From positions 5,056,001 to 5,120,000 of the forward strand of contig OY776510.1 in the NCBI GenBank assembly GCA_963675665.1: a stretch of DNA of 64,000 nt, given 5' to 3'. The translations under genes were made by a program, and so were the position numbers. Below, piece by piece: positions 4,065 to 64,000 of this stretch. Positions within the stretch are counted from its first letter, which is position 1. Each line of letters starts with the position of its first letter. Below the pieces are notes generated by a model that saw only the letters and a list, made by a program, of their open reading frames with translations, searched no databases and had not been told where the DNA came from. The DNA is from Spirochaetia bacterium (GTDB taxonomy: Bacteria; Spirochaetota; Spirochaetia; UBA9216).

Positions 4065-5078
4065 ATGAAAAAACTGTTGAAACACCATGAAACCTATCTT
4101 GTAATAATCATTATTCTTTTATCCGCGATTATAACCTCCCGGAACCCAAACTTTTTCACATCCGAGAACATGTTTGATTTGCTGAAAAGCAACTCATTTA
4201 CGGGTATTCTTGCTATCGGGGTGCTCTTTGTACTTATAAGCGGCGGTATAGACATTTCGTTTGCCGCAACGGCAACTGTTGCCGAGTATATCACTGCACT
4301 GGTCATCATAAATCTGGGCGGCAATATTATTGCCGCAATACTGATAGCCGTTATCATAGGAAGCATCCTTGGGTTTATAAACGGCCTGCTTGTATATAAC
4401 TTTAAAATTCCGTCTATTATTACAACAATTGCCACAATGAACATTTACTACGGCCTGTTGACCTTTATCACGGGCGGAAAGTGGATATATTCACTACCTG
4501 ACTGGTTCAGGAATTTCGCACAGATAAGGCTTCTTACATTCTACAATGCAGACGGAATACCCTACGGGTTGTCGATTATCACATTTATCTGGATTCTTGT
4601 TGTTATTGCGGCAGTAATTATACTGCGCTTCACTATTCTGGGACGCAGCATCTATGCTGCAGGCGGAGACCGAAAGGCTGCAGTCCGGGCCGGTATAAAC
4701 GTATTTTTTACCGAAACCTTTGTCTATACCTTTATGGGTTTTCTGGCCGGGCTTGCCGGCGTTGTTCAGGCGCTTCTGGTGCAGACTGTTGCGCCGAATT
4801 CAATTGTAGGCAAAGAACTGAACGTTATCGCGGCTGTTGTTCTGGGCGGAGCAAGCCTGTCCGGGGGTAAAGGAAGCGTTATTGGGGCCCTGCTTGGAGT
4901 GGCGCTGCTGGCAATTCTTAAAAACGGAATGACTTTAATGGCGGTCCCGCCTGTATGGTACGAATTTCTGGTCGGAGTAGTTATTCTTATAAGCATAGGG
5001 TTCAGCTCATGGCAGGCCAAGATGAAATCAAGAAATACATCGGTAATTGAATTACTTCCCGGGGAGGCAGCTGAATGA
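4065..5078 (+). CDS. Sugar ABC permease (RbsC family)
   Basis: GGIDIS and IAAVVLGGASLSGGKG motifs; highly hydrophobic. Confidence 0.9.
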   Translation: MKKLLKHHETYLVIIIILLSAIITSRNPNFFTSENMFDLLKSNSFTGILAIGVLFVLISGGIDISFAATATVAEYITALVIINLGGNIIAAILIAVIIGSILGFINGLLVYNFKIPSIITTIATMNIYYGLLTFITGGKWIYSLPDWFRNFAQIRLLTFYNADGIPYGLSIITFIWILVVIAAVIILRFTILGRSIYAAGGDRKAAVRAGINVFFTETFVYTFMGFLAGLAGVVQALLVQTVAPNSIVGKELNVIAAVVLGGASLSGGKGSVIGALLGVALLAILKNGMTLMAVPPVWYEFLVGVVILISIGFSSWQAKMKSRNTSVIELLPGEAAE

Positions 5079-6076
5079 AAACCATGCTTAACAAAATGAA
5101 CAACGAAATGAAGATTTTAAGCCTGATCCTTGCTTTTGCATTTTTACTCATGGCCGTGCTCAGTCCGGGCCACTTCCTTAGACTCGGCACTTTTCAGGGA
5201 ATGGCATTCCAGCTGCCCGAGCTTGGACTGCTGTCGCTTGCCATGATGATTACAATGCTCACAGGAGGAATCAACCTGTCGATCATTGCAACAGCCAATA
5301 TTTCTGCCATTTTGTCCGCAATGATCCTGGTAAACAACGTTAATCCTGAAGCAGCAGCAGCCGCAGACGGATGGTATATTCTGCTTGCCGTTCTTACGGC
5401 GCTTGCCGTGTCGGTTGTTATAGGATTGTTTAACGGCATCCTGATATCAGTTATTAATATTCCGCCCATCCTGGCAACCCTTGGCACAATGAAACTGCTT
5501 CAGGGGCTTGCGTTCATTATTACAAAGGGATATGTAATATCAGGCATGCCGAATGCAATAAGTTTTATCGGCAACGGGACAATTGCGGCGGTGCCCTTCC
5601 CGCTGCTCATTTTTATCCTCTTTGCGGCAATAATGTCTGTTTACCTTAATCATACATCAACCGGATTCAATATCTTCATGTACGGCTCCAACCCGGTTGC
5701 CACCTTTTTCTCCGGAACGGACAATACGAAAGTAATAATCCAAACCTATATAATGTCAGGGCTGTACTGTGGAGTCGCCGCGCTTGTAATGATGTCCAGG
5801 TTCAATTCAGCGAAAGCCGGTTACGGTGAATCTTATCTGCTGGTCACAATTCTTGCGGCTGTTTTAGGAGGAGTAAAAAGCGAAGGCGGGTTCGGACAGG
5901 TCTCGGGTCTTGTATTGTCCCTTATCATACTACAGATAATTTCCAACGGACTGAACCTGCTGGGCGTCAGCTCCTTCATGACCATTGCTATCTGGGGACT
6001 GATAATGATAGGCGCCATGGTTATTCACTTTCTGGTTGAGAAAAGAAACCGGTACAAACTCAGTTTAAACCGCTAA
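5075..6076 (+). CDS. Sugar ABC permease (RbsC family)
   Basis: GGINLS and ILAAVLGG motifs; ATGA overlap with previous gene. Confidence 0.9.
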   Translation: MKTMLNKMNNEMKILSLILAFAFLLMAVLSPGHFLRLGTFQGMAFQLPELGLLSLAMMITMLTGGINLSIIATANISAILSAMILVNNVNPEAAAAADGWYILLAVLTALAVSVVIGLFNGILISVINIPPILATLGTMKLLQGLAFIITKGYVISGMPNAISFIGNGTIAAVPFPLLIFILFAAIMSVYLNHTSTGFNIFMYGSNPVATFFSGTDNTKVIIQTYIMSGLYCGVAALVMMSRFNSAKAGYGESYLLVTILAAVLGGVKSEGGFGQVSGLVLSLIILQIISNGLNLLGVSSFMTIAIWGLIMIGAMVIHFLVEKRNRYKLSLNR

Positions 6077-6104
6077 CGCGGGTTTATTCAGCAGACAAGC
6101 TGAT

Positions 6105-6152
6105 AAGGAGACCGTACAGATATGAAGAATATCGGAACGGTCTCCTTTTTTT
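6105..6152 (+). terminator. Intrinsic terminator between convergent units
   Basis: aaggagaccgt...acggtctcctt inverted repeat followed by a T run. Confidence 0.75.
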
Positions 6153-6180
6153 GTTTTACACTAATGATAAATCTAAATTT

Positions 6181-6666
6181 TTAAAATCTAAATCCGTACG
6201 TGAGGGTTAAATTCGGTATAAAATCCAAATCAAATCCTGTCTTATCCGGAGATATTATAAACGGAATACCGCCTCCTCCTTTCAGAGAAATTCTATGATT
6301 CGGATTTATTTTATAATAAAATCCGGCAGCAAGACCTGAACTGAGCATTGTCTCCGGCCCGGGTTCAGTAAAAACAGTAAACCCGTCAATTAAACCGAAA
6401 AGCAGTTCAGCACCAAACCTGTTCGCATTTGGAGTAATATTCCAAACGCCCGTTAAATCATATAAAAGAACCAGATCCCCTTCGAATGAAAAGATGTTGC
6501 TTCCGATTCCGGTTCTTATTGCAATACTGTTGTTCAGAGAATATTGAAGTCCCAATTCGATTCTTATATCATAACCCGTGGTTACCTGAAACTCCAGTTT
6601 ATCTTCGGCTGCTGCTGCAGAACATAGAACCAATCCAATAGCTAAAATAAATATTATTTTTTTCAC
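6181..6666 (-). CDS. Hypothetical secreted protein, possible small outer-membrane beta-barrel
   Basis: Likely GTG start at 6666 after AGGAG; signal peptide KKIIFILAIGLVLCSAAAA; alternating beta pattern; C-terminal YGFRF. Confidence 0.6.
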   Translation of the reverse strand: MKKIIFILAIGLVLCSAAAAEDKLEFQVTTGYDIRIELGLQYSLNNSIAIRTGIGSNIFSFEGDLVLLYDLTGVWNITPNANRFGAELLFGLIDGFTVFTEPGPETMLSSGLAAGFYYKINPNHRISLKGGGGIPFIISPDKTGFDLDFIPNLTLTYGFRF

Positions 6667-6825
6667 ATTTTCTCCTAATATTAATAAATAGATTATAGGC
6701 ATATCTAATTTCCCCAAATTGGGCTTGATCAGCAATTTACTTCTTATTATTTCTTTCCTGTTAGATAAGAATTTACATCAGTAATCCTCCTTGTTTATTA
6801 TTTTTACTCTACGATTTCACGCTTT

Positions 6826-7047
6826 TCAGAAACGGCCTATACATATAAGAAAAACTCCCAAAATGAGTAAAAGCATGTTCCTGCCCAGAAATATCAAATT
6901 CGCGGATTTTCTTCCAAAACGATTTCTTAACGAAACCAGACCGAAAAACATGTCCGGGAAAAACACCTGCAGCAGAGTCAGCGCCGAAAAGAAAACTATG
7001 ACGATAATTCCGAAGATCTTTAAAATCACTCTCAGTACTTCATTCAT
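6826..7047 (-). CDS. Small hypothetical membrane protein (2 TM)
   Basis: Two hydrophobic stretches; starts 4 nt after the upstream stop, AGGAG RBS. Confidence 0.55.
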   Translation of the reverse strand: MNEVLRVILKIFGIIVIVFFSALTLLQVFFPDMFFGLVSLRNRFGRKSANLIFLGRNMLLLILGVFLICIGRF

Positions 7048-50285: not shown

Positions 50286-52859
50286 TTAAGGGGCCTCCGT
50301 ATCGGCGGTTAGCGGGTAGCTTTCGCTCTGCAGGTTAATCTCCGACAGGGCCGTTTGAAAATCGGCATTGCTCTGATAGATGCTGAAATCACTCGTGGTA
50401 GAAGCACCAGTAACCGGCTCGGTCCAGACAAATTTTGCATAGCTGTTTTCCTGACTCGGATCAGGATGATCATACAGGTACAAAACCGCTGTATTTAAGT
50501 CGCCGTCGATATAGGCCATTGAGGCGTGTCCTTCATATTCAGGAGTACTGAGGTTTGGTCGTCCCCAATGGAGTAGGGCCTGCGAGCCGTCGCTGTAAAA
50601 TTCATATTCCTGGGTTCCATAGCCGTCATCAGGAAGATACCAGGTGCCGCCAAGTTCGATCAGGCTGGAATAATCCGGATGTATTGAAAAATTATAGACG
50701 CCGGTGCTGCTGTTTATCGAGACGGTAGACGCGCCGTAATATCCGGAATAATCTCCGGACAGGGGCTGCCCGAAGGTACCCGATGTATTCACGGCGCCGT
50801 AGAGGTAGTAGCTTCCTGACGGAACATTAGTAATCAGAAAACACATTGAGTTGCTGGTACTGCAATAGCCGCCGCCTGTTGCGACCTGGCCGTTGCCTCC
50901 GTCCTGATCAGTATCCAGGGCCGCCCAGTATGCAGCACCGCTCCAGTCAACACCTTCTGGCAGCGACATGGTCCCCCTGACAATATAACCGCTGGAGTTC
51001 TTCTCTCCACTCAGGACGAATGTTTCATCAATCGAGGAATCCGAGCCGTAGTCATAAGTCCCCAACCCTTCAACCGTTCCGTCTGAATCAACAACCCCGC
51101 AAATATCCGCCGTCACTACCTGCGGAGCAGTAAAATCATGATTAAGAGAAAAGTCTCCGGTAGAGGAGTTTAATGTACCGGTTGCAGTGTATTCTCCTGT
51201 AACAGTAAGAAAGGTCACTGTTGCGGTACTGCCGTTTACTTCCAGGGTCCATACTCCGGCATTTGAGTCTTCCGGATTGCCTGTGGTGGATGACAATATC
51301 TCAGTACTCCCCCCGTAAAGGCCGTTGTAATCAAGCGAAGCAACAACTTCAACCGTTCTTGTTACCCAAACCGCGCTGTTTCCGTCGGTATCGGTTTCCG
51401 AATACGTAAATACATATGTGTCAGGCGTATCAATGTCGAATTCATCATCATCTGAAGCCGTGATTGTATAGTCGTCATTTATTCCCCAGTCACGGACGGT
51501 TGCCTCCGGATCGGTGAAATCTCCGCCGACCTCCACGCTCATTGAAGCATCGCCGTTCAGATAAATGACGGGGGGCACAAGATCAGCCGAAATATAGGCA
51601 GTTGCAGTACGCTCATCAGCCGCGGCGGTACGGGCGGCATTAACTGTAAAATAACCTGCAGTCCAGCTCTGCTCAAAAACCCCGTCGACGGGCTCAGTCC
51701 ATTCAACTTTGAAGTACTCTTCACCGCTCAGAGCTATCCCGTAATTGGCATCATTGTCATATTCAACCATTGTTCCGCTGTCTACTGTAGAACCGGAATT
51801 GGTAACCACTGAATATGAATCATCACCCGGATTTGACTGGTAAAGATAACCGGTGCTGTTATCCCAGAAATAATATGCTTCTGGAATTTCAATCGGGGGC
51901 GGATCAATTACCGTTACCGTTCTTGTTATCGACTCGGCCGCATTCCCGTCCAGATCAGTTGCGTTATAAGTCAGCGTATAATCGTCAGGCGTTGAAGTAT
52001 CAACTTCATCTTCACTGTAAACCGTCCAGGTCCCGTCGACATTATCCGTGGCTGTTGCGCCCGGGTCGGTAAAGTCGCTTCCGTATGACACCGTCATCGG
52101 ATCATCGCCGAGCAGGCTTAAAACCGGGGCCACGGCATCGGCTGCAGCGCGTCTTTCAACATCAATTGTGTATGTTTTTAAAGTTTCGCCGTCTTCCGCA
52201 GTTACTTTCACTGAAACAATATTGCTGCCGGTTACAAGCGCTACCGGACCTGATTCTGCGCCTGAAACAGCAGCAGCGCCGTTTACAGTCATTGAAGCCG
52301 CCGAATCGCTGAGCACAGCTGTTACGGTTATTGATTCCGTATCATCCGGAACGCTTGATTCGTACGAGATAACCGATGAGGCAAATTGAGGATCAAGATA
52401 GCCGACGCTTAATTCAAGAGCGGTTAAATCCGCATTATCCGAATATACCGGTTCCGGTCTTGTTATTTTCAATGTATACGAAACAGCATCGCCATCATCC
52501 GGAGTGACAACAACCGCAACTGTTGTTGTTCCGTAGGATAAATCAATGCTAATACTGCTGCCGCTTGTCAGCGCCTGCCCGCCTACCGAAAGGCTTGCTC
52601 CGCTTAATTCGGCCGCGAGTTCGATGAAAATGGAAGAAAGGGCTGAATTCACGGTTACTTCAACAGTCGCGGTTTCGGCTGAAAACGAGACCTGTTTCAC
52701 ATAGGGTTCTCCGCCGGCATTTCCGCTTAAAGAAAGCGATACGGAGACTGATCCCGCAACCGGAGGGAGCGTTTCAGGACAGCCTGAAAAGAACATAACA
52801 CTCATCGTAACCATCAATAATAGAACAATGTACTTGATTGACTTTCTTATTCCAAACAT
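50286..52859 (-). CDS. Large acidic surface lipoprotein with cadherin-like beta-sandwich and DUF5011-like Ig domains
   Basis: Lipobox FSGC; NADLTALEL..VTAEDG..TYTI; two PV..L.GD...GxDFTDP.AT repeats; rich in Ser/Thr/Asp. Confidence 0.8.
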   Translation of the reverse strand: MFGIRKSIKYIVLLLMVTMSVMFFSGCPETLPPVAGSVSVSLSLSGNAGGEPYVKQVSFSAETATVEVTVNSALSSIFIELAAELSGASLSVGGQALTSGSSISIDLSYGTTTVAVVVTPDDGDAVSYTLKITRPEPVYSDNADLTALELSVGYLDPQFASSVISYESSVPDDTESITVTAVLSDSAASMTVNGAAAVSGAESGPVALVTGSNIVSVKVTAEDGETLKTYTIDVERRAAADAVAPVLSLLGDDPMTVSYGSDFTDPGATATDNVDGTWTVYSEDEVDTSTPDDYTLTYNATDLDGNAAESITRTVTVIDPPPIEIPEAYYFWDNSTGYLYQSNPGDDSYSVVTNSGSTVDSGTMVEYDNDANYGIALSGEEYFKVEWTEPVDGVFEQSWTAGYFTVNAARTAAADERTATAYISADLVPPVIYLNGDASMSVEVGGDFTDPEATVRDWGINDDYTITASDDDEFDIDTPDTYVFTYSETDTDGNSAVWVTRTVEVVASLDYNGLYGGSTEILSSTTGNPEDSNAGVWTLEVNGSTATVTFLTVTGEYTATGTLNSSTGDFSLNHDFTAPQVVTADICGVVDSDGTVEGLGTYDYGSDSSIDETFVLSGEKNSSGYIVRGTMSLPEGVDWSGAAYWAALDTDQDGGNGQVATGGGYCSTSNSMCFLITNVPSGSYYLYGAVNTSGTFGQPLSGDYSGYYGASTVSINSSTGVYNFSIHPDYSSLIELGGTWYLPDDGYGTQEYEFYSDGSQALLHWGRPNLSTPEYEGHASMAYIDGDLNTAVLYLYDHPDPSQENSYAKFVWTEPVTGASTTSDFSIYQSNADFQTALSEINLQSESYPLTADTEAP

Positions 52860-52959: not shown

Positions 52960-53904
52960 TCATGAACGGTAGCGAACATCGTCAAACAGCCGGAGCCGCC
53001 ATCCGCGCGTCTTTATATCTCTGGGGTTTTCGGAAACAGGCACAATTGTGCCAATCTGGATCAGTTCAAGATACTTTTTTATATCATTTACCCGGTTTTT
53101 ATAGTTGCGGTAATTAGCGCATGAGGTAGCCTTCCAGTTCCCGGCAGTACACTCCCTGCAGTGCGGATCTTCCGTCCCGTCCGCTTTCAGCCGGCTGAAA
53201 AGCTCACTGCAGTTCTGAGAATTGTTTTCCGCTGAAAGAAACGCATGTATAAAATCACATTCCTGGGGACTGAGCATTGACGATATGTTCCTGTCGTCGA
53301 AATAAAGACTGTCGTCGAAATAAAGACTGTCGCCTGAATAGTGAAGCCTGTGGTTGGCCCTCTCCCAGAGGTTCGCTGCCGCAAAAATCATAAGCAGACC
53401 GATTACCCCGTTGACCAGGTTATAGGCTGTAGACTCAATCCACCGGGGCTCGGCTCTTGTTACTATCGCATACGACATCATCATAAGCCAGGAAACCCAC
53501 AGGATAACTATTACAATTGTGCCGATAGTAAGAGTCCTGTATACCGGAGTTCTTTTTTTAACCAGCCTGAGAGAATCTATTTTTATAATTAAGAGAATGT
53601 AATAAAGCAATACTGCCTGTGTTCCATATGTATGAAAATCACGATGGTATAATCTTCCTCCTGCACTTGCTGTTATTATAAGTACTGCAAGACTGAAAAA
53701 GAACACGGGAATGAAGACTCTTGCTTTTTTAAAACGTGAAGTAAAAAAAGGAAGAAAAAAAGCAGCAATTGCCGATATCAGCATGTAGAGGAATTCCGGA
53801 ACACCCGCGGCAGCAACACTTATAGTGCCTGACGGATTTAAAAACACCATGAGTTCAATCACAATCCATGCCACTGCCGAGATAATCGGTACAGAAATCG
53901 CCAT
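52960..53904 (-). CDS. Membrane protein with a C-terminal Cys-rich, winged-helix-like domain (putative regulator)
   Basis: About 6 TM, then LSPQE, C..HCREC..SC.NY, VNDIKKYLE, GWRL. Confidence 0.6.
   Translation of the reverse strand: MAISVPIISAVAWIVIELMVFLNPSGTISVAAAGVPEFLYMLISAIAAFFLPFFTSRFKKARVFIPVFFFSLAVLIITASAGGRLYHRDFHTYGTQAVLLYYILLIIKIDSLRLVKKRTPVYRTLTIGTIVIVILWVSWLMMMSYAIVTRAEPRWIESTAYNLVNGVIGLLMIFAAANLWERANHRLHYSGDSLYFDDSLYFDDRNISSMLSPQECDFIHAFLSAENNSQNCSELFSRLKADGTEDPHCRECTAGNWKATSCANYRNYKNRVNDIKKYLELIQIGTIVPVSENPRDIKTRGWRLRLFDDVRYRS
53291..53332. repeat. In-frame 18-bp tandem duplication
   Basis: ctgtcgtcgaaataaaga x2 plus ctgtcg, encoding DSLYFD-DSLYFD. Confidence 0.85.
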
Positions 53905-54007: not shown

Positions 54008-54880
54008 ATGCAGGAATTGTCAGCCGAGACGCTAAACGAAGTAATTGCAGATCAGAAAAACGAACTTGACGCATCAATAATTTACGGCAAGATCGCGAAA
54101 AAAATGAAAGATGATAACAACCGGAAAATTCTTTCAAAAATTGCCGAGGATGAAAAAAAGCATTACCTGATTCTAAAAAACTATTCGGGAAGAGATGTTA
54201 AGCCGCGCCGCTTCAAAATACTGATGTTCCTGTTCTTCGCAAGGGTGTTCGGTATAACATTCGCATTCAAACTTCTTGAAAACGCCGAAGGAGAGGCCCA
54301 TACCGGCTACCGGAAAATTTCATCGGCACTCCCTGAACTGAAAAAAATTATTGATGATGAGGAACGGCATGAGCGGGAACTTATCGATATGCTTAATGAA
54401 AAAAAACTCGATTACATAGGCTCAATTGTCCTGGGCCTAAACGACGCGCTTGTCGAATTGACCGGAGCGCTTGCGGGGTACACCTTTGCCATTCAGGACA
54501 GCAGAAACATTGCATTGCTGGGTCTTATCACAGGGATATCAGCTTCTCTTTCAATGGGAGCAAGCGAATATCTGTCCAAAAAACAGGAAAAAGAAGACAA
54601 GGCGTTCAGTTCAAGCCTGTATACCGGCATAGCATACATTATAACTGTTATGCTCCTGGTTCTCCCGTTTCTGCTGTTGTCGAATCCCTTTATAAACCTC
54701 GGAATAACAGTCGGAATAGCTGTCCTGATCATCTTCTTCTTCAATTACTACATTTCGGTTGCAAAAGACCTTTCATTCAGACACAGATTCCTGGAGATGG
54801 CCGCAATCAGCGTGGGTGTTGCAATTATCTCATTCCTTATAGGATGGGCCGTAAGAACGTTTTTGGGATTTGAGCTTTAG
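54008..54880 (+). CDS. Rubrerythrin-like / VIT1-CCC1 fusion (MbfA-like iron exporter)
   Basis: DEKKH and DEERHE ExxH di-iron motifs; VLGLNDALVELTGALAG, SMGASEYLS; ATG 54008 after AGGAG. Confidence 0.85.
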   Translation: MQELSAETLNEVIADQKNELDASIIYGKIAKKMKDDNNRKILSKIAEDEKKHYLILKNYSGRDVKPRRFKILMFLFFARVFGITFAFKLLENAEGEAHTGYRKISSALPELKKIIDDEERHERELIDMLNEKKLDYIGSIVLGLNDALVELTGALAGYTFAIQDSRNIALLGLITGISASLSMGASEYLSKKQEKEDKAFSSSLYTGIAYIITVMLLVLPFLLLSNPFINLGITVGIAVLIIFFFNYYISVAKDLSFRHRFLEMAAISVGVAIISFLIGWAVRTFLGFEL

Positions 54881-54982
54881 CTGGATTAGGATATAACGGC
54901 CGTCTGTTGTTATCAGCAAAAGCGGTGAGTTACCTTCGCGGCTCCTGCTCAGCGATGATGATTTCGACAAAAAGTAACGCTG

Positions 54983-56485
54983 TTAAATTGAAGTTTCTTC
55001 TTTATTCTTTCTTTTTTCCCTGTACATTTCAAAATCTGCGGTCTGTATCATCTTCTCAATATCTTTATCAGCGCTGCAGGATACACAGAACCCTGCCGAC
55101 AGACTGAGGTTGTGAGTGGTTTTAATATTAATTTTTGCAATATTCTCCCGGAGTCGTTTTACCAGTTTTGCTGCAAGTTCATGTTCGCATTCAGTTATCA
55201 GAACAACAAACTCATCGCCGCCTATCCGAAAAATGTAGTCGGTTTCCCTGAAAGTATTTTTCAGAGTCTCTGCAGCCTGCTGTATGAGCACATCACCTTC
55301 AGCATGGCCCAGGGTATCATTCACAGTCTTCAACCCGTCGATATCTACAGAAAAAACGCCGCCCGGACGAAAATCCGTTTCACCCATGATAATCTTGTTA
55401 AAATATGCCCTGTTATAAACACCGGTAAGCGCGTCATGATAACTGGTATATTCATATTGATTTCTGGAAATAACCAATTCTTCATAACGCTGAGCATTTG
55501 AAATAGCCAGCGATGCAATTTTTATGATTGAATTAAAAAGATCAGTGTATTTATCAACATGTTTCGGGAAAAGAAAATCTCCAACCTCAATAATTCCGAA
55601 TTTCTCGTCTCCGGATTTGAGCAATGCATAAAAGGTTTTATTTTCAGAGTCCATTATATACACTTGCTCTTCTTTAAATTCCAGAGTTTTTATTTTCCGG
55701 GGCGCATCAGCCCAATCTTCGCTGTAATTCCAGAAACAGCTTTTTGAGGCACCGAAGAGGATCGTCCAGATATGATCAAGCATTGATATAACATCCCGTT
55801 TGTATTCAGCGCCGGCTATTCTGGACATGATATGCAAAACAGCTGAGTTTCTTGCATTCATATCCATCAACGCACGCATGTCATCCTGCTTTTCAGTCTT
55901 CAGATTTCGGACCCTCCAATCGGTGACAATGCTTTTAAGAAGTGTTCTTATCGGCTCAAGACTAACCGGAATTGATCTGACCGGAAGGTCCAGATAAGCC
56001 GAAAGAGCTTTCAGCTTCTTGTCGGCCTCATCATAGATCCCGGTGTCGAGAAAAACAATTTTACTGCAGCAGCTTTTGTAAAATTCCCGGGCTGTCCCGA
56101 TAGTAAATCCCTGCCTCTTTATATGTTCTTCCCAGTTGACAAGCCAGCCTGTTGTTACGACATAATATCCTTCCGCGGAAAAAAAACGGGCAAACTGGTC
56201 GCTGATCATGTGGGAATAGCAAAAAGCCGATTCGTAAACCGATAAAAACTTTTTATCATACTCATCTTTTCTGGGGGCCCTGCAGAGGTGACTGCATACA
56301 AGTACGGCAGCTTCATCGGGATTCGGTTTTTCCGCAATGCCGTTCTGAGAATTAAAAACAGGAATACCGCCGTCGCAAAAACTGTGAAAAGGAACAATAT
56401 CCAGGTTTTCAGGCCCCTCATTTTCTACGAGATACCGGAATTCGGGGAGATAGTTCTCACATACATATACTGATAATCGGTTCAT
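54983..56485 (-). CDS. Diguanylate cyclase with a Cys-rich DUF1638-like N-terminus
   Basis: HDALTGVYNR, DIDGLK.VND.LGH.EGD, RETD-x5-GGDEF; N-terminal VCENY..YYVVTTGWL..IVFLDTG. Confidence 0.85.
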   Translation of the reverse strand: MNRLSVYVCENYLPEFRYLVENEGPENLDIVPFHSFCDGGIPVFNSQNGIAEKPNPDEAAVLVCSHLCRAPRKDEYDKKFLSVYESAFCYSHMISDQFARFFSAEGYYVVTTGWLVNWEEHIKRQGFTIGTAREFYKSCCSKIVFLDTGIYDEADKKLKALSAYLDLPVRSIPVSLEPIRTLLKSIVTDWRVRNLKTEKQDDMRALMDMNARNSAVLHIMSRIAGAEYKRDVISMLDHIWTILFGASKSCFWNYSEDWADAPRKIKTLEFKEEQVYIMDSENKTFYALLKSGDEKFGIIEVGDFLFPKHVDKYTDLFNSIIKIASLAISNAQRYEELVISRNQYEYTSYHDALTGVYNRAYFNKIIMGETDFRPGGVFSVDIDGLKTVNDTLGHAEGDVLIQQAAETLKNTFRETDYIFRIGGDEFVVLITECEHELAAKLVKRLRENIAKINIKTTHNLSLSAGFCVSCSADKDIEKMIQTADFEMYREKRKNKEETSI

Positions 56486-57537
56486 TTCCTTTTTCCGTAG
56501 CCACCAGGCGGGTAGCGTCCGTATTCCTCTGCAGCCATGGATACAGCAAGAAGAGTTTTTTCCGGTACCTGCAAAGGTATTTCTCCATGAGAGTCCGACA
56601 GGATGAAACCGCCTCCCGGAGCTGCAGTTTTAACCAAAGCCCTGACTTTTTCAACGGCTGTTTCTTTATCCCATTCAGCCATTTCTATTCCGTTTAGGTT
56701 TCCCAATAACGTTATTCTTCCGGTCGAGACGTCTTTTATATGCTTCAACTCTTCGCCTGTCCCTATCCCGACAATCGGGCTGCCGAGGTTAATTATATCT
56801 TCCATTACCTGCAAAACCCTTCCGGAAGCAAGATGCACAGCAACCGGACCTTCTATTCCGGTAATTGTCCGACTGTCTACAGGGTAACCTGCAGACAGAT
56901 ACAATGACCTGTCGATCATATCCGGAGACATCAGCGGATTAAAATAGCCGATGGCTGTTGCACCTGCCTTGAATTGTGCATTTGCGTAATTTATACAAAA
57001 CTGTCGGTTAACCTGCATCAAACGGTCAAACCTCGGCCTGTCAAAATATAATAGTTTCAGATATTTCTCAAATCCCATCTGCATTACGGGCAAAGAAAAA
57101 GGAGACATTACAATTCCGATAACAGGCACTTTTCCGTTTGAATGAATCGCAAGTTCTCTGGTTACCTCAAGCACCTGTCTGAGGACAGGTACATCATCGA
57201 TATCAGGTACTTCCATTGAATCAATATCGCTGCTTTTCCCGATGATACCTTCTCCGGCATTCGGAGGGGTTTCCGGTTGAAAGAGTACTTCTCCGCCCCA
57301 CGCCTGTACTTCAACAGCAGCATAATGAAATGTATAATAACAGTCGGTCTGATACTTTTTCTGCATATGAATCTGTGTTTTAATAACATTTTCAGCCACT
57401 GAAAAGTAATTTTTAACCGAACAGCCCATTTCCTTGGCACCGTAGTGTGAAAACAGGAAGAAGACTGGTACTCTGTCGGGCTCCTTGTGGCCAAGCGTTT
57501 TCAGAACCCTTTCCATCGACGTCATATCACTATTCAC
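56482..57537 (-). CDS. Uroporphyrinogen-decarboxylase-fold protein (MtaA/CmuA methyltransferase-like)
   Basis: MTSMERV..EPDRVPV, SPFSL, LLGNL, GGGFILS; GTG 57537 after GGAGGGG. Confidence 0.82.
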   Translation of the reverse strand: MNSDMTSMERVLKTLGHKEPDRVPVFFLFSHYGAKEMGCSVKNYFSVAENVIKTQIHMQKKYQTDCYYTFHYAAVEVQAWGGEVLFQPETPPNAGEGIIGKSSDIDSMEVPDIDDVPVLRQVLEVTRELAIHSNGKVPVIGIVMSPFSLPVMQMGFEKYLKLLYFDRPRFDRLMQVNRQFCINYANAQFKAGATAIGYFNPLMSPDMIDRSLYLSAGYPVDSRTITGIEGPVAVHLASGRVLQVMEDIINLGSPIVGIGTGEELKHIKDVSTGRITLLGNLNGIEMAEWDKETAVEKVRALVKTAAPGGGFILSDSHGEIPLQVPEKTLLAVSMAAEEYGRYPPGGYGKRK

Positions 57538-58183
57538 AGCCGCCCCTCCATGAATCCAGGTTTCCTGATAAATTCTCCAGAATCCCGAATATTTCTCCGG
57601 CATTCCCGGCACCCCGGCAGGCGCCTACTTTCTTATACAGATTCCGATCAAGCCGGAACGGCGCTCCGCCGACGACAATCGGTACTTCAGGACATTCCCG
57701 GGACATCCGGGAGGACAACTCCTGTACAGCCAGGGCAGAAGGAAACATAAGCACTGATACAAGAAGAATCTGTATCTTGTACTCACGGATTTTAGAAATG
57801 ATCTTTTCCGCATCAACTCCTGTACCAAGATCAAAAACAGGATACCTGTAATTTCTTACCAGGCTGGAGACAATCTTCATTCCAAGGCTGTGATGATCAA
57901 GATAGACTGCAGCCCCGATAACGGGAAGAGACTCATCAGTCCTGTCTGATTCAGATAAAAGCGTCTTCAAAATCTCCTCACATATAACACCGCTCATATA
58001 CACCTGAGCAAGAGATACTTCACCGGATTCCCAGTTTGCCCCGACCTTTTCAAGCGCATACATCAGAGTCTCTCCCATACCGGTAATACCCTTCTCTTCT
58101 ACCGCCTCTCTTAAAATTTTATCTACGCCGGTTCGGTCAACCGAAACAAGCCCTTCATATAAAGCCTGAACTGAATTATCCAA
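57530..58183 (-). CDS. Corrinoid (B12-binding) protein with cap domain
   Basis: VG.NWE.GE.SLAQV cap; DHHSLG (DxHxxG), DLG.GV, SVLM, VGGAP. Confidence 0.88.
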   Translation of the reverse strand: MDNSVQALYEGLVSVDRTGVDKILREAVEEKGITGMGETLMYALEKVGANWESGEVSLAQVYMSGVICEEILKTLLSESDRTDESLPVIGAAVYLDHHSLGMKIVSSLVRNYRYPVFDLGTGVDAEKIISKIREYKIQILLVSVLMFPSALAVQELSSRMSRECPEVPIVVGGAPFRLDRNLYKKVGACRGAGNAGEIFGILENLSGNLDSWRGGCE

Positions 58184-58321
58184 ATCCGATACTCCTTTGC
58201 CAGTTATTTAAAGAAAAGATCATCAGAGATCATTTAATGATAATTCATTCAGAATTGTAATGCAAGAAAGATCATAAACCGTTATGAACAGAGAAAAATC
58301 ATCCGTAAGAATGCAGAGTAC

Positions 58322-58339
58322 GGGCACCTCTGATAACCC
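58322..58339. repeat. Solo copy of the repeat arm found at 20695
   Basis: gggcacctctgataaccc versus gggcacctctgataatccc (first 15 nt identical). Confidence 0.55.
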
Positions 58340-58396
58340 TCGGAATAACGGCCGTCGGCCCTTCACAGAATCTTCATGCTCGGATAAAATACTGCG

Positions 58397-59440
58397 ATGA
58401 AACATAGACTTACAGCACTGATGCTTTTATCAGTAATAACTATAACCGGCCTTTCTGCACTGGGAACAAAAGAACAAAAGCTTGAATCGCATACGTTTTT
58501 CGCGCTTGGAACAACCTGTACCGTCAGCATTTACGGCGGAACAGAGCAGAACTTTTCCGAAATTGAAACGATTATAACAGGCATCGAGAACCGCATGAGC
58601 GTCAACATTGACGACAGCGAGATCAGCATGATCAATAAAGCCTCGGGCAGCAATGCCGTTACTGTATCTTCCGACGTTTACAGCGTTATAGCAGCCGGTC
58701 AGCACTTTTCCGAACTCAGTAAAGGCAGATTCGATATCAGCATCGGGCCGCTTGTTCAGCTCTGGGATATCGGAGGCGGCGGGAACACAGTTCCTTCCGA
58801 AGAAGCAATAAAAGAGGCTCTTGCGCTGGTTGATTATTCCGGGGTTGAAATTGTTCCGGCAGCCGATAACAACGAGGGCGGAAGCATTTACCTGCCGAGA
58901 GCGGGAATGGCTCTTGAACCCGGCGGCATAGCAAAAGGGTATGCCGCGGATGCGGCGGCGGCTTATCTTCGGGACAACGGAACAAGTTCAGCCTTAATAA
59001 ATTTCGGAGGGAATGTCCTTGCAGTCGGTTCCAAAAGTGACGGCTCAAAATGGCGTATCGGGATTCAAAATCCCGACTCCAGCCGCGGCGATTATATCGG
59101 TATTGTTCCGGTAGAAGAAAAAGCCGTTGTTACATCGGGCAAATATGAACGGTTCTTTATAGGAGCCGACGGGCTGCGTTATCACCATATTTTGAGCACT
59201 GAAACCGGCTATCCGGTAGAAAACGGAATTGCGCAGGTCAGTATTATAGCTACCGAATCAATGACGGCAGACGCCTTGTCGACAGCCGTATTCTCACTCG
59301 GCCTTGAAGACGGCATGGCTCTTGTTGACAGTATTTCCGGTGTTGAAACAGTTATAGTCATGGAAAACGGAAATATTTACATAACAGAAAATCTGAAAGC
59401 TGTTTTCCAGCTGACGGACAATAATTTTTCAGTACAATAA
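58397..59440 (+). CDS. apbE: FAD:protein FMN transferase
   Basis: ALGT, FDISIGPL..LW, GGIAKGY, NFGGN, VTSGKYER, HHIL, ADALSTA. Confidence 0.92.
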   Translation: MKHRLTALMLLSVITITGLSALGTKEQKLESHTFFALGTTCTVSIYGGTEQNFSEIETIITGIENRMSVNIDDSEISMINKASGSNAVTVSSDVYSVIAAGQHFSELSKGRFDISIGPLVQLWDIGGGGNTVPSEEAIKEALALVDYSGVEIVPAADNNEGGSIYLPRAGMALEPGGIAKGYAADAAAAYLRDNGTSSALINFGGNVLAVGSKSDGSKWRIGIQNPDSSRGDYIGIVPVEEKAVVTSGKYERFFIGADGLRYHHILSTETGYPVENGIAQVSIIATESMTADALSTAVFSLGLEDGMALVDSISGVETVIVMENGNIYITENLKAVFQLTDNNFSVQ

Positions 59441-61204: not shown

Positions 61205-61957
61205 TTATACCGGAACAACAAAGGGAAAACCACCGGCGTCCAGAACCATGACATCCAGACCATAAACCTCTTTCATGTTTTCAGGTGTTATAATGCTTCT
61301 GTCTCCCGCGGCATATATCAGACCGTCTTTCAGAAGAACAAATTTGTCTGAATACCTTAAAGCCAGATTGATGTCGTGCATGGTCATTACCGCGGCCCTG
61401 AAGCCGGCATGAATAAGATCCCGGATCTTTACCATAAGGCGATGCTGGTTACTTATATCAAGGCTGCTGGTTGGTTCGTCAAAAAGGATTACACGGGGGT
61501 CCTGAGCCAAAGTGCGGACTATCTGTACCAGCTGAAACTCTCCGCCGCTTATTTCATCCGCATACCGAAGAGAGAGGTCTTCAATACCCAGAAGCTTTAT
61601 TGCTTCTTCTATCTTGTCATAGTCTTCCCTGGCCGGCTCCCACCTGAAATAGGGTTTCCGGCCAAGAAGGATAAGGTCGTATACTTTCATCCTGGAAATC
61701 TCACCCTGTTGAGGTACCCAGCCTATCTTTCGTGCAACTTCCAATGATCGCATATCCTCAACATCTGTACCGTCAATCCGTACAGAACCTCTCAGGGGAG
61801 AAAGGACCCGGTTCAGGCATTTAAGAAGGGTTGTTTTGCCGCTGCCGTTAGGCCCCAGAATGGACAGGATCTCTCCCGCCGCCACTCCGAAGGATACATC
61901 CCTGATTACGGGCACGCTGTTATACCGGAATTTAAGGCCGTGAACATTGAGGATCAT
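61205..61957 (-). CDS. Iron-chelate/cobalamin ABC ATP-binding protein
   Basis: GPNGSGKT, ISGGE, DEPTSSLD, HDINLA. Confidence 0.9.
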   Translation of the reverse strand: MILNVHGLKFRYNSVPVIRDVSFGVAAGEILSILGPNGSGKTTLLKCLNRVLSPLRGSVRIDGTDVEDMRSLEVARKIGWVPQQGEISRMKVYDLILLGRKPYFRWEPAREDYDKIEEAIKLLGIEDLSLRYADEISGGEFQLVQIVRTLAQDPRVILFDEPTSSLDISNQHRLMVKIRDLIHAGFRAAVMTMHDINLALRYSDKFVLLKDGLIYAAGDRSIITPENMKEVYGLDVMVLDAGGFPFVVPV

Positions 61958-63012
61958 CTTTTTCGTCCTGCTATAAGCAGATAAATAAACAGAGGCCCGC
62001 CCGACAGGGATGTCAAGATTCCTACAGGAAGAACCATAGGAGAAAGAACTGTTCTTGCCGCTGTATCCGCCGCTAAAAGGATTATTGCTCCGACCAGCGG
62101 AGAAGCAACCAGTAAAAAGCGGTGGTCTCCGCCAAGGATTTTCCTGGCGATATGCGGCCCCAGAAGGCCTACAAATGCTATTGTTCCAAAAAAGGACACT
62201 ATTATTGCCGAAAGAATGGAGGCTGACAACATCCCGATTATTCTGACGACCCCGGTTTTTACACCGAGTCCCCTGGCCGTATCTTCTCCCGTATCCAAGG
62301 CATTAAAATTCCATCGAAAGTAAAAGAACAAAATATATACGGGAACCAGCACCAGAGCAATAATCAACAGAAAGTGCCGGTTTGCCCGGCCGAGATCTCC
62401 AAAGGTCCAGGATATTATGCCGGCCAGCTGAATACTGTCGGCAAGATACTGCATGAGGGTAAGACCGGCCGAGAAAATTGAGCCGATCGCAATGCCCGCC
62501 AGCACCATACTTTCAGCCGAGATTTTGGTTAAAACGGTAAGCAGGAGAATCGCTGCTGTTGACAGGGAAGAGAAAACAAAAGCTGAAAAAGCGACTGTAA
62601 AGGAATCGCTTATAATAATAGTTGATGTAGTGCCGGTTCCTGCTCCAAAAAAAACGATGGCAAACGACGCTCCAAAAGCTGCAGCGCTGGAAAGGCCCAG
62701 CGTATATGGAGATGCCAGCGGATTTCGAAGCACCGACTGCATGACCGTCCCGGAAAGGGCCAACCCTGCCCCTACAAGAAGTGCGGCAATTATCCTGGGC
62801 ATCCGGACATCCCGGATAATCCTTCCGGCACCGGTCATATCGAACCCGAAGATACCTGAAACCACCTCTTTCAGAGGTATTCTGATAGTCCCCGTCGAGA
62901 CGGATATAATTACAAGCAAAGCAAGGAGCAGTCCTGTAACGATAAGAAAAACAATCTTTCTTCTTATATATCCCCTGTAATGGTAATATATCGAAGAGCC
63001 GTTATGAAGCAT
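61954..63012 (-). CDS. FecCD/BtuC-family permease
   Basis: RMPRI, RNPLASPYTLGLS, IAFVGLLGPH, LPVGILT. Confidence 0.92.
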   Translation of the reverse strand: MLHNGSSIYYHYRGYIRRKIVFLIVTGLLLALLVIISVSTGTIRIPLKEVVSGIFGFDMTGAGRIIRDVRMPRIIAALLVGAGLALSGTVMQSVLRNPLASPYTLGLSSAAAFGASFAIVFFGAGTGTTSTIIISDSFTVAFSAFVFSSLSTAAILLLTVLTKISAESMVLAGIAIGSIFSAGLTLMQYLADSIQLAGIISWTFGDLGRANRHFLLIIALVLVPVYILFFYFRWNFNALDTGEDTARGLGVKTGVVRIIGMLSASILSAIIVSFFGTIAFVGLLGPHIARKILGGDHRFLLVASPLVGAIILLAADTAARTVLSPMVLPVGILTSLSGGPLFIYLLIAGRKR

Positions 63013-63014
63013 AT

Positions 63015-64000
63015 TTAATTAAACCAGTCCACTCTTTCAGGGCCGGCTTTCTGCCGGGCAACAACAGTATCGTAATCCAGCGGCACTCCGAAGAAAAGGT
63101 TCCAAATCTCCTCAGCCTTATCTTTTATTGATACATCACCGTACAGCTCCGGATAACATACCTTACCGGTATAATAGACATTAATAAGCTGATTTTCCCA
63201 GTTGGTTCCGTAATATTTATATACAAAGGTTGTATGAACTTCACGGTTTATAAATGCCGGAACCTGCTCTTCAAGGACCGTCCGGTTTGTCATAAACCCG
63301 GCTTTTGAAAGATTTACATTTGCCGCGTCGATAAATATATAATCCGGGGAAGCCGCTATCAAATCTTCAAGCGACGTCATATATGGTTGAAGGTTTCCCG
63401 CGGGATTTGTGGGCATTACATTTTCCGTACCCGTCAGTTCAAACGGAAGGTAGTCTCCTGTTGTACGGAGCAGATCGGCAGGCCCGTAGTACATCATACC
63501 GCCGGCATAAGCCTTTTGGGGAGCCTGTGATTTCACAGCCCGGGCTTCAAGATCCTTTATAACAGCATCAATACCCGCTACCAGCTCTTCAGCTCTTTCT
63601 TCCCTGTCCAGCACCAGGCCCAATGTTTTAAGTTGATTATAAAACAGTTCCAGGTCAAAAAACTCCACATCAATATTGACGCCGAATACAGGTATTCCCA
63701 AAACCTCCTGAAGATGATCCAGCTGGCCGGTATCTACGGCAGAGGATATAATGACATCCGGAGCCGCCGCAATTATTCCTTCATGGTTTTCCCCGCTTCC
63801 TATGCCCGGCAACTGCCGAAGTTCCGGAAAAGCCAAACGGTAAGTTGCCAGATAAAAAAAGTCATGAACTGTTTTTTCCCTGCCGTGTCCCGAATCTTCA
63901 ACAGCAATCACCTTGTCCGCAGCATTCAGATAACTTACAAGTCTTAAAGAGCCGGCATCAAGAGCAATAATGCTGTTGACTTCTCCCGGTACCGGGACAT
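63015..64000 (-). CDS. Iron-chelate/cobalamin ABC substrate-binding protein, 5' end beyond the window
   Basis: Frame stays open upstream of the track start (VPVPGEVNSIIAL...); E.II..PDVII and E.L...PD.I motifs. Confidence 0.85.
   Translation of the reverse strand, partial: VPVPGEVNSIIALDAGSLRLVSYLNAADKVIAVEDSGHGREKTVHDFFYLATYRLAFPELRQLPGIGSGENHEGIIAAAPDVIISSAVDTGQLDHLQEVLGIPVFGVNIDVEFFDLELFYNQLKTLGLVLDREERAEELVAGIDAVIKDLEARAVKSQAPQKAYAGGMMYYGPADLLRTTGDYLPFELTGTENVMPTNPAGNLQPYMTSLEDLIAASPDYIFIDAANVNLSKAGFMTNRTVLEEQVPAFINREVHTTFVYKYYGTNWENQLINVYYTGKVCYPELYGDVSIKDKAEEIWNLFFGVPLDYDTVVARQKAGPERVDWFN

Follow-up and report, generated by a model that had tools for sequence, protein, structure and literature searches.

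A conserved three-gene cassette of a corrinoid protein, a URO-D-fold protein and a DUF1638 sensor: a candidate corrinoid-state signalling system in a spirochaete and in other phyla

Here, we analysed a stretch of 64,000 nucleotides from the genome of a Spirochaetia bacterium (assembly GCA_963675665.1, contig OY776510.1, positions 5,056,001 to 5,120,000; this whole stretch is referred to as the window), in which three consecutive genes encode a corrinoid (B12-binding) protein, a protein with the uroporphyrinogen decarboxylase (URO-D) fold and a sensor that joins a DUF1638 domain, a GAF-like domain and a GGDEF diguanylate cyclase. Our analysis indicates that this trio represents a conserved, cytoplasmic signalling cassette of three proteins, in which the corrinoid and URO-D genes precede sensors with exchangeable outputs. 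The first-pass annotation of this locus had proposed a B12-dependent signalling system that reads a methyl donor or the state of the cobalt; the signalling part of that proposal is well supported by the conserved triad and its outputs, and a methyl donor or the cobalt state would be a candidate signal. On balance, we favour the view that the genes form a corrinoid-state sensor cassette, and are less confident of any particular signal. The cassette is widespread and apparently undescribed, no description of it having been found in the open-licence papers of PubMed Central or in bioRxiv.

The unity of the cassette is evident from gene order. Loci were collected from the sensor side with two alignments of the input region, one GGDEF-type (11 loci) and one kinase-type (60 loci), and the order corrinoid, URO-D, sensor was found in 59 of these 71 loci, spread over more than 12 phyla. 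Among the GGDEF-type loci, the triad is present in all 8 that include enough upstream DNA, and 3 short contigs show the URO-D gene directly upstream; the carriers are Spirochaetota, Desulfogranum marinum, Oscillospiraceae, Christensenellaceae (three loci), Acetobacterium fimetarium, Limnochordia and Syntrophomonadaceae. The kinase-type loci, in 51 of which the sensor is immediately preceded on its own strand by the corrinoid and URO-D genes (of the others, 4 are cut inside the URO-D gene, 1 comes without upstream DNA and 4 depart from the pattern), belong, by their record titles, to Thermodesulfobacteriota, Actinomycetota, Alpha- and Gammaproteobacteria, Bacteroidota, Chloroflexota, Riflebacteria, Coprothermobacterota, Verrucomicrobiota, Acidobacteriota, Armatimonadota, Myxococcota, Thermotogota, Nitrospirota and Bacillota.

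The same picture emerged from the opposite direction. The URO-D alignment matched at least 603 stretches, at least 595 of which encode a relative, and among the best 80 of them, drawn partly from the same genomes as the sensor-side sets, the URO-D gene stands in 71 between a corrinoid gene just before it and the sensor module just after it. The other 9 comprise 6 with DNA on one side only and the other partner present, two with neither partner (L187 and L225) and one short locus with nothing downstream (L186). The triad singled out in the first-pass annotation is thus conserved whether the search starts from the sensor or from the URO-D protein. Two bins assigned to archaea, from Methanomicrobiales (L214) and Methanomethylophilaceae (L223), carry the full cassette, and one Christensenellaceae chromosome harbours two copies (L090 and L091), in the former of which (4679-6981) the URO-D gene is split by an insert of about 1.27 kb.

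The output that follows this constant arrangement varies. A Pfam scan of 75 of the top 150 representative proteins matched by the input-module profile (see below) identified 37 GGDEF proteins, some with an extra PAS or GAF domain and one with REC-BTAD, 23 histidine kinases, 1 SpoIIE phosphatase combined with an anti-sigma-type ATPase, 2 proteins with PAS only and 12 proteins devoid of a recognisable output, many of which are short. Similarly, the sensors of the 60 kinase-type loci include 29 kinases, 11 GGDEF proteins, 1 PAS-GGDEF-EAL protein, 1 SpoIIE protein, 12 complete open reading frames (ORFs) in which Pfam recognises no output and 6 truncated by the end of the contig. A quick maximum-likelihood tree built from 56 URO-D partners requires at least 13 changes of the output label and places the source protein within a clade of ten GGDEF-linked cassettes from four phyla (Shimodaira-Hasegawa-like approximate likelihood ratio test value of 95). 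The interchangeable outputs envisaged in the first-pass annotation were accordingly found for GGDEF and histidine kinases, and also for GGDEF-EAL and SpoIIE, whereas HD-GYP occurs only in a neighbouring gene and never fused to the sensor. Six of 8 output-less cassette sensors (Table 1) end in a Cys/His motif, IPICSxCKKIRxDxGxW...HSxAxFxHGxCPxC, that no Pfam family covers and that may be an undescribed output domain; the remaining two (L126 and L142) have a coiled coil in its place.

The corrinoid protein consists of a B12-binding_2 cap (PF02607, 35.1 bits) and a Rossmann B12-binding domain (PF02310, 64.8 bits) and carries DHHSLG, which corresponds to the DxHxxG motif (D96, H98 and G101), along with SxL and GG, a combination that places it among methyltransferase-type corrinoid proteins. 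The retention of DxHxxG, pointed out in the initial annotation, extends to the whole family: D96, H98, G101, S143, L145, G172 and G173 are invariant in all 60 of 60 cassette corrinoid proteins. From these invariant motifs, we infer that the protein binds a cobamide in the base-off/His-on form. Assignment as a CarH-type protein was rejected. Light-responsive cobalamin-binding domains are described as having a GxxW...E-H signature in the helical cap (in the part of PMC11796333 that deals with it); in the cassette protein, GANW is kept but V61-Y62 occupies the place of E-H, where the consensus of the orthologues is QVYMSG and Y62 is at least 90% conserved. The NCBIfam model of CarH yields 32.2 bits against a cut-off of 400, and the methyltransferase corrinoid model scores higher, at 68.4.

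The URO-D protein matches PF01208 with 170.4 bits, and its best match by sequence among solved structures is MtaA (4ay7, E 6.2e-8). In this alignment, 'lHI-CGnv' of MtaA pairs with 'vHLASGrv' and 'apgCGiap' with 'sdsHGeip'. The aligned His-x-Cys and distal Cys of MtaA are presumably the zinc ligands, so that, with HLASG and SDSHGE in their places, both zinc cysteines are replaced; this agrees with the HLA and LSDSHGE that the first-pass annotation had read at the zinc-ligand positions of MtaA/MtbA-type enzymes. Across 56 orthologues, with a mean column identity of 62%, A233, S234 and the stretch H313-G-E-I-P317 are invariant. Assignment as a true MtaA or MtbA was rejected on the curated NCBIfam models, for all of which the scores are far below the cut-offs (PRK06252, 94.9 versus 244; MtaA_Meth, 74.7 versus 400; mtaA_cmuA, 73.5 versus 235.4; MtbA, 46.3 versus 600), and so was assignment as HemE (TIGR01464, 47 bits versus 302.95), leaving the fold family PF01208 as the only one reached; the MtaA-type models rank above HemE. 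Judged by its sequence, the protein is one that works like, or derives from, the MtaA/MtbA/HemE family rather than a member of it.

The sensor begins with the DUF1638 domain. PF07796 (DUF1638) matches with 32.6 bits against a cut-off of 27, covering profile positions 60-161 and residues 89-183 only, and relatives with the same input module reach up to 60 bits for this family. Comparison of the sensor input with a stand-alone-type DUF1638 protein of the same genome gave an E value of 1.4e-4 (probability 52.6, 183 columns). A search with residues 1-335 retrieved 18 proteins including the query, 15 with GGDEF and 3 histidine kinases, that share the N-terminal 335 residues, and among 1.84 billion representative proteins the profile of the module, which comprises DUF1638 and the GAF-like part, matched 1306 at E <= 0.001 and 567 at E <= 1e-30. 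The best 150 matches, in proteins of 183-1462 residues, span with few exceptions all 339 positions. The description of the N-terminus as DUF1638-like in the earlier annotation therefore stands, on the Pfam score above the cut-off, the profile comparison and the representative matches.

In an alignment of 150 sequences, C9, C37, C68, C89, Y108, W114, L115, W118, F127 and P168 are at least 90% conserved; Cys64 is peculiar to the GGDEF-type subgroup of the input module. C9, C68 and C89 align with cysteines of the stand-alone-type DUF1638, and C37 does not. The model of the domain (residues 1-195; predicted local distance difference test score, pLDDT, 92.6; predicted template-modelling score 0.88) has an alpha/beta fold in which each of the four cysteines follows one of the first four strands, and we infer that they cluster in space. 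Foldseek returned no solved relative of this model at E <= 0.001; in a comparison with 48,161 chains by VIA-align, Z reached no more than 7.1 (PTS IIA, receiver and Toprim domains, generic flavodoxin-like folds), within the range of common arrangements; a sequence search of solved structures with the input profile yielded no meaningful match (best, ribosomal L29, E 0.21); and an Atlas look-up found DUF1638 clusters only, at 0.86-0.87, under its 0.9 line. We claim neither a fold relative nor a new fold for this domain from the structure searches.

A stand-alone DUF1638 protein is needed, together with a RamA-like protein, for a split B12-dependent methionine synthase, and the account given in that report goes as far as this genetic link, with no defined role assigned there (PMC5764234); another is reported to be induced together with corrinoid methyltransferases (from the relevant portion of PMC12478193). 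The source genome itself encodes a second DUF1638 domain, the stand-alone-type one of the comparison above (137 bits; 5126635-5130213, minus strand, about 8 kb past the end of the window), that is fused to a Hydant_A_N plus Hydantoinase_A ATPase, a possible ATP-driven helper of corrinoid proteins.

The full-length sensor model (pLDDT 80.4) shows a helix at residues 200-243, strands at 246-304 and a further helix at 307-349, and Foldseek ranks the phytochrome-activated cyclase 5llw first among its matches (E 1.2e-12 over 365 aligned columns). Pfam detects no GAF family in the sensor at E <= 0.1. Hence, the GAF-like linker of the first-pass annotation is retained by predicted structure and not by Pfam, and 'GAF-like' is here a structural description of the modelled middle domain and not a statement of family membership. 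The C-terminal domain is a GGDEF domain by both PF00990 (116 bits, residues 349-496) and TIGR00254 (120.1 versus a cut-off of 37.4). The intact GGDEF and the RxxD I-site previously noted are both present, the former as G422-G-D-E-F426 and the latter as R413-x-x-D416, five residues upstream, and all of these (422-426, R413 and D416) are invariant in 14 of 14 relatives. We propose that the output is an active-type cyclase subject to product inhibition through the I-site, and that the product would be cyclic dimeric guanosine monophosphate (c-di-GMP).

The two partner proteins are dedicated to the cassette. Within the source genome, the closest paralogue of the URO-D protein is at most 33% identical over 84 residues and that of the corrinoid protein at most 27%, compared with 38-76% and 30-60%, respectively, for the cassette orthologues from other phyla. 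To judge from these identities, the URO-D and corrinoid proteins are dedicated families of their own, and the earlier description of the locus as a metabolic module that had been 'rewired' is too loose, given that neither protein has a close paralogue in the genome. Over 45 loci, the mean pairwise identity is highest for the URO-D protein, 0.56, versus 0.44 and 0.29 for the other two, and the pairwise identities of the three proteins are correlated (r = 0.77, 0.71 and 0.59). The single RACo of the genome is located about 3 Mb away, in a canonical corrinoid cluster (G000:C1:2064000-2077000) that contains a PocR-AraC regulator, a corrinoid protein, a 453-residue URO-D protein, a CobW GTPase and the RACo; the 453-residue protein is 20% identical to the cassette URO-D protein over 210 residues. 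The RACo frame has one TGA within 633 residues according to the genome search and is a clean ORF of 618 residues in the ORF list.

A metabolic corrinoid methyl-transfer module was rejected as a description of the locus itself, there being no second methyltransferase or activase among the 10 neighbours or in the flanks of 6 related loci. More specifically, neither a pterin-binding methyltransferase nor RACo is found among the 10 annotated neighbour genes in the window, in line with the earlier statement that no methyl-tetrahydrofolate acceptor or RACo gene is adjacent, and a pterin-binding methyltransferase, an MtaB-type partner and RACo are all absent from beside the cassette in the 7 annotated neighbourhoods (the source and 6 related loci).

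Taken together, these observations suggest a mechanism. The corrinoid protein would carry a cobamide, base-off/His-on, on whose upper face the URO-D protein would act, most likely by adding or removing a methyl group, as its family membership and unusually strong conservation imply. The DUF1638 domain would read the state of the corrinoid, Co(I), Co(II) or methyl-Co(III), through a metal or iron-sulfur site formed by the four conserved cysteines, docking on the corrinoid protein in a state-dependent manner, and the GAF/PHY-like domain and the long helix would pass the change on to a dimeric output. In the spirochaete, this output would be a GGDEF dimer producing c-di-GMP, limited by the I-site; elsewhere, it would be a kinase, a GGDEF-EAL protein or a PP2C phosphatase. 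As the signal, we would favour the cellular redox or methyl-group status, conveyed by how much of the protein is in the oxidised, inactive Co(II) form; Co(II) suggests itself as the state recognised by DUF1638 because of the published link of this family to a RamA-like protein and split methionine synthase and because of the DUF1638-ATPase fusion in the same genome.

Several findings weigh against this reading. The Pfam match to DUF1638 in the sensor is weak and partial (32.6 bits, residues 89-183), the four cysteines could simply hold a structural zinc ion, and, with the thiol-activating zinc cysteines of MtaA gone, the chemistry of the URO-D protein may not be methyl transfer. The kinases of two loci (L152:5941-7260 and L153:5911-7230), which keep the usual corrinoid and URO-D genes upstream, match the GAF-like half of the module only and have no DUF1638 by Pfam, so that the reading may not depend on DUF1638, or not on it alone. 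The correlated identities could come from co-inheritance alone, as for genes inherited as a unit. Finally, the triad is incomplete in 4 of the 71 sensor-side loci: the corrinoid gene is missing from its place directly upstream in L099, the URO-D gene is absent from L104 and L145, which do have the corrinoid gene, and L108 has neither.

Other explanations account for parts of the evidence. The cassette might gauge corrinoid availability, the sensor distinguishing loaded from empty corrinoid protein and the URO-D protein serving as a scaffold or loader, an idea that fits the loss of the MtaA zinc cysteines as well as the Fe/B12-type ABC transporter 3 kb away and another one next to the cassette of L093. 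However, such a transporter is near the cassette in 2 of the 7 annotated neighbourhoods, the window contains no cobalamin riboswitch, and the URO-D protein, with the highest conservation of the three and invariant barrel motifs, is better suited to catalysis than to scaffolding, so that we consider this reading improbable. We also think it unlikely that the corrinoid and URO-D proteins are a metabolic methyl-transfer pair with an independent regulator that detects a methylated compound through its GAF-like domain. Clusters of corrinoid and UroD-superfamily proteins without a tetrahydrofolate (H4folate) methyltransferase occur in many anaerobes, as set out in the account of the mlp clusters (PMC10418091), and the two kinases that keep only the GAF-like half are what this view would lead one to expect. 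Yet a lone methyltransferase with its carrier cannot finish a methyl-transfer pathway, and no second methyltransferase or activase is encoded in the annotated loci; moreover, the corrinoid and URO-D genes are almost never without the sensor among the best 80 loci, and it is not normal for the regulator of a metabolic operon to be coupled so closely and so universally, with overlapping start and stop codons. Somewhat further from our preference is a covalent switch, in which the zinc-less URO-D protein would move a methyl group from methyl-Co(III) to a metal-bound cysteine thiolate of DUF1638 and S-methylation would flip the sensor; the URO-D protein could do without the thiol-activating zinc because the acceptor would bring its own metal. 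The Ada protein is comparable in principle. If true, this distinctly unlikely alternative would amount to a corrinoid-fed protein-methylation relay spread over more than a dozen bacterial phyla and some archaea.

The four near-invariant cysteines, each after one of the first four strands, and the carriers, listed mostly as anaerobes and bacteria of sulfur gradients, would also suit an iron-sulfur sensor of redox state or oxygen, with the cluster in DUF1638 sensing and the corrinoid and URO-D proteins only maintaining or poising it. We judge this quite doubtful, since the strictly kept B12 site and the URO-D barrel would be left with no role, and stand-alone DUF1638 is itself tied to a B12 enzyme in the published genetic work, as presented there (PMC5764234). 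Least plausible, and in our opinion very unlikely, is a CarH-like light sensor, in which methyl- or adenosyl-cobamide would be photolysed and the URO-D protein would re-methylate it in the dark: B12 domains fused to cyclases, to GAF or to other signalling domains are put forward as photoreceptor candidates in the pertinent section of PMC11796333, and purple sulfur bacteria carry the cassette (L143 and L150), but the conserved tyrosine after V61 in place of E-H and the lead of the methyltransferase model over that of CarH speak against it, and many of the carriers are genome bins recovered from digesters, sediments or guts. Sensing of the corrinoid state remains, in our assessment, the reading to be preferred.

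The distribution of the cassette is patchy among the relatives of the source genome. The input module is found in 4 of 60 related genomes and in 1 of 5 genomes of the same genus, there with 62% identity; the cassette is therefore accessory and mobile. Bacillota loci have GGDEF-HD-GYP genes in the neighbourhood (L087:3878-5263, L088:2533-5232 and L091:2137-5202), of the type PAS/GAF/REC-GGDEF-HD-GYP and directly upstream of the cassette, and a spirochaete bin has a PAS-GGDEF-EAL gene one gene away (L085:2475-4169); genes for c-di-GMP breakdown thus travel near the cyclase-type cassette. Elsewhere, chemotaxis-type and kinase genes flank the cassette (L084), and Peripla_BP_2 and FecCD genes adjoin it in L093, as does a gene for a DUF4430 surface protein.

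In the window, the cassette lies head to tail on the minus strand, in the order corrinoid, URO-D, sensor in the direction of reading (Table 1). The corrinoid gene starts with TTG at 58183, 8 nt downstream of a ribosome-binding site, AAGGAG, at 58192-58197. The public gene call for the URO-D protein is 351 residues long, and its homologues align from about residue 23-30 of the longest ORF, for which reasons the true start is taken to be GTG 57537 or ATG 57525; depending on the choice, the corrinoid and URO-D genes overlap by 8 nt or are separated by 4 nt. The URO-D stop and the sensor start overlap as ATGA. Of the three overlapping genes described at first, the overlap of the second and third is therefore confirmed and that of the first and second depends on the start chosen.

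Table 1. Features of the cassette and its surroundings (positions in the window, unless a locus is named)
Feature	Position	Strand	Basis or remark
Corrinoid (B12-binding) protein gene, 217 aa	57530..58183	minus	PF02607 + PF02310
URO-D-fold MtaA-like protein gene	56482..57537	minus	PF01208; longest ORF up to 57612
Sensor gene, 500 aa (DUF1638 + GAF-like + GGDEF)	54983..56485	minus	
DUF1638 input domain, sensor aa 1-195	55901..56485	minus	PF07796, domain model
GAF/PHY-like middle domain + long signalling helix, sensor aa 196-349	55439..55900	minus	predicted structure
GGDEF diguanylate cyclase domain, sensor aa 349-496	54998..55441	minus	PF00990, TIGR00254
ABC transporter, Fe-siderophore/B12 type (ABC_tran, FecCD, Peripla_BP_2)	61205..63911	minus	Pfam; context only
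Cys/His-motif sensors (other loci)	L103:5980-7242, L107:5983-7215, L110:2435-3745, L111:768-2024, L116:6001-7287, L121:5992-7266		

The ten annotated flanking genes encode ApbE, an ABC-F ATPase, the Fe/B12-type ABC transporter, a rubrerythrin-VIT1 protein, a surface protein and tryptophan genes. For the transporter, the position about 3 kb off given in the first-pass annotation (3.0 kb) and the family both hold, and a specificity for B12 finds no support. An Rfam scan of the window yielded no cobalamin riboswitch or other Rfam family, and a scan for promoters and terminators at 54700-58500 gave nothing above shuffled sequences. The surface protein gene (50286-52859, minus strand) specifies 857 residues with two Cadherin-like and two bacterial Ig-like domains, and adjoins a 314-residue ORF (52960-53904) that has no Pfam match.

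To our knowledge, in B12-based sensing the cofactor sits within the regulator and serves there as a switch that responds to light or acts like a ligand; what would be new here is a separate carrier and a methyltransferase-like enzyme placed in front of kinases, c-di-GMP enzymes and phosphatases. If our reading is correct, corrinoid chemistry serves many anaerobes and bacteria of gradient habitats as a sensory input, a concrete function can be assigned to the DUF1638 family, and there is a candidate signal for hundreds of soluble orphan kinases and cyclases. Cultured carriers include Desulfogranum marinum DSM 2058, Acetobacterium fimetarium DSM 8238, Geomonas sp. Red32, Thiorhodococcus minor DSM 11518, Allochromatium palmeri DSM 15591 and Desulfobacter vibrioformis DSM 8776.

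Among known systems, the MtaC/MtaA and MtbC/MtbA pairs of methanogens share with the cassette the adjacent genes for a cap-plus-Rossmann corrinoid protein with DxHxxG and for a URO-D-fold protein. By contrast, the cassette enzyme scores far under the curated cut-offs for MtaA and MtbA, its zinc cysteines are replaced, no substrate-specific first methyltransferase or activase is nearby, and the corrinoid/URO-D pair is followed by a signalling protein. The type 1 mlp clusters of Kountz and Balskus resemble the cassette in being widespread and in combining MtaA-like and corrinoid proteins in the absence of an H4folate methyltransferase, but, in the clusters as outlined there, two or three Mlp proteins come with a Ram/RACE activase and with no sensor (PMC10418091). 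Stand-alone DUF1638 proteins, such as PGA1_c13340 of Phaeobacter inhibens and SPO2162 of Ruegeria pomeroyi, belong to the same Pfam family and share three aligned cysteines of the stand-alone type, and a B12-binding protein is either encoded next to them or required along with them, as stated in the relevant parts of two reports (PMC5764234, PMC12478193); the cassette domain, unlike them, forms the N-terminal part of a signalling protein, carries a fourth conserved cysteine and precedes a GAF-like domain.

CarH and the cobalamin-binding domains fused to cyclases or GAF domains likewise bring a cobalamin-binding protein into signalling, some being fused to diguanylate cyclases according to the portion of PMC11796333 that treats them. 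In these proteins, the B12 domain is built into the regulator and has E-H, whereas the cassette corrinoid protein is a separate, methyltransferase-type carrier without E-H, to which the cassette adds a URO-D enzyme and DUF1638. Finally, IsPadC (5llw) has the GAF/PHY-like domain, the long helical linker and the GGDEF output in common with the sensor, but the latter lacks the bilin-binding PAS-GAF core and instead has, as its input, DUF1638 and two partner proteins.

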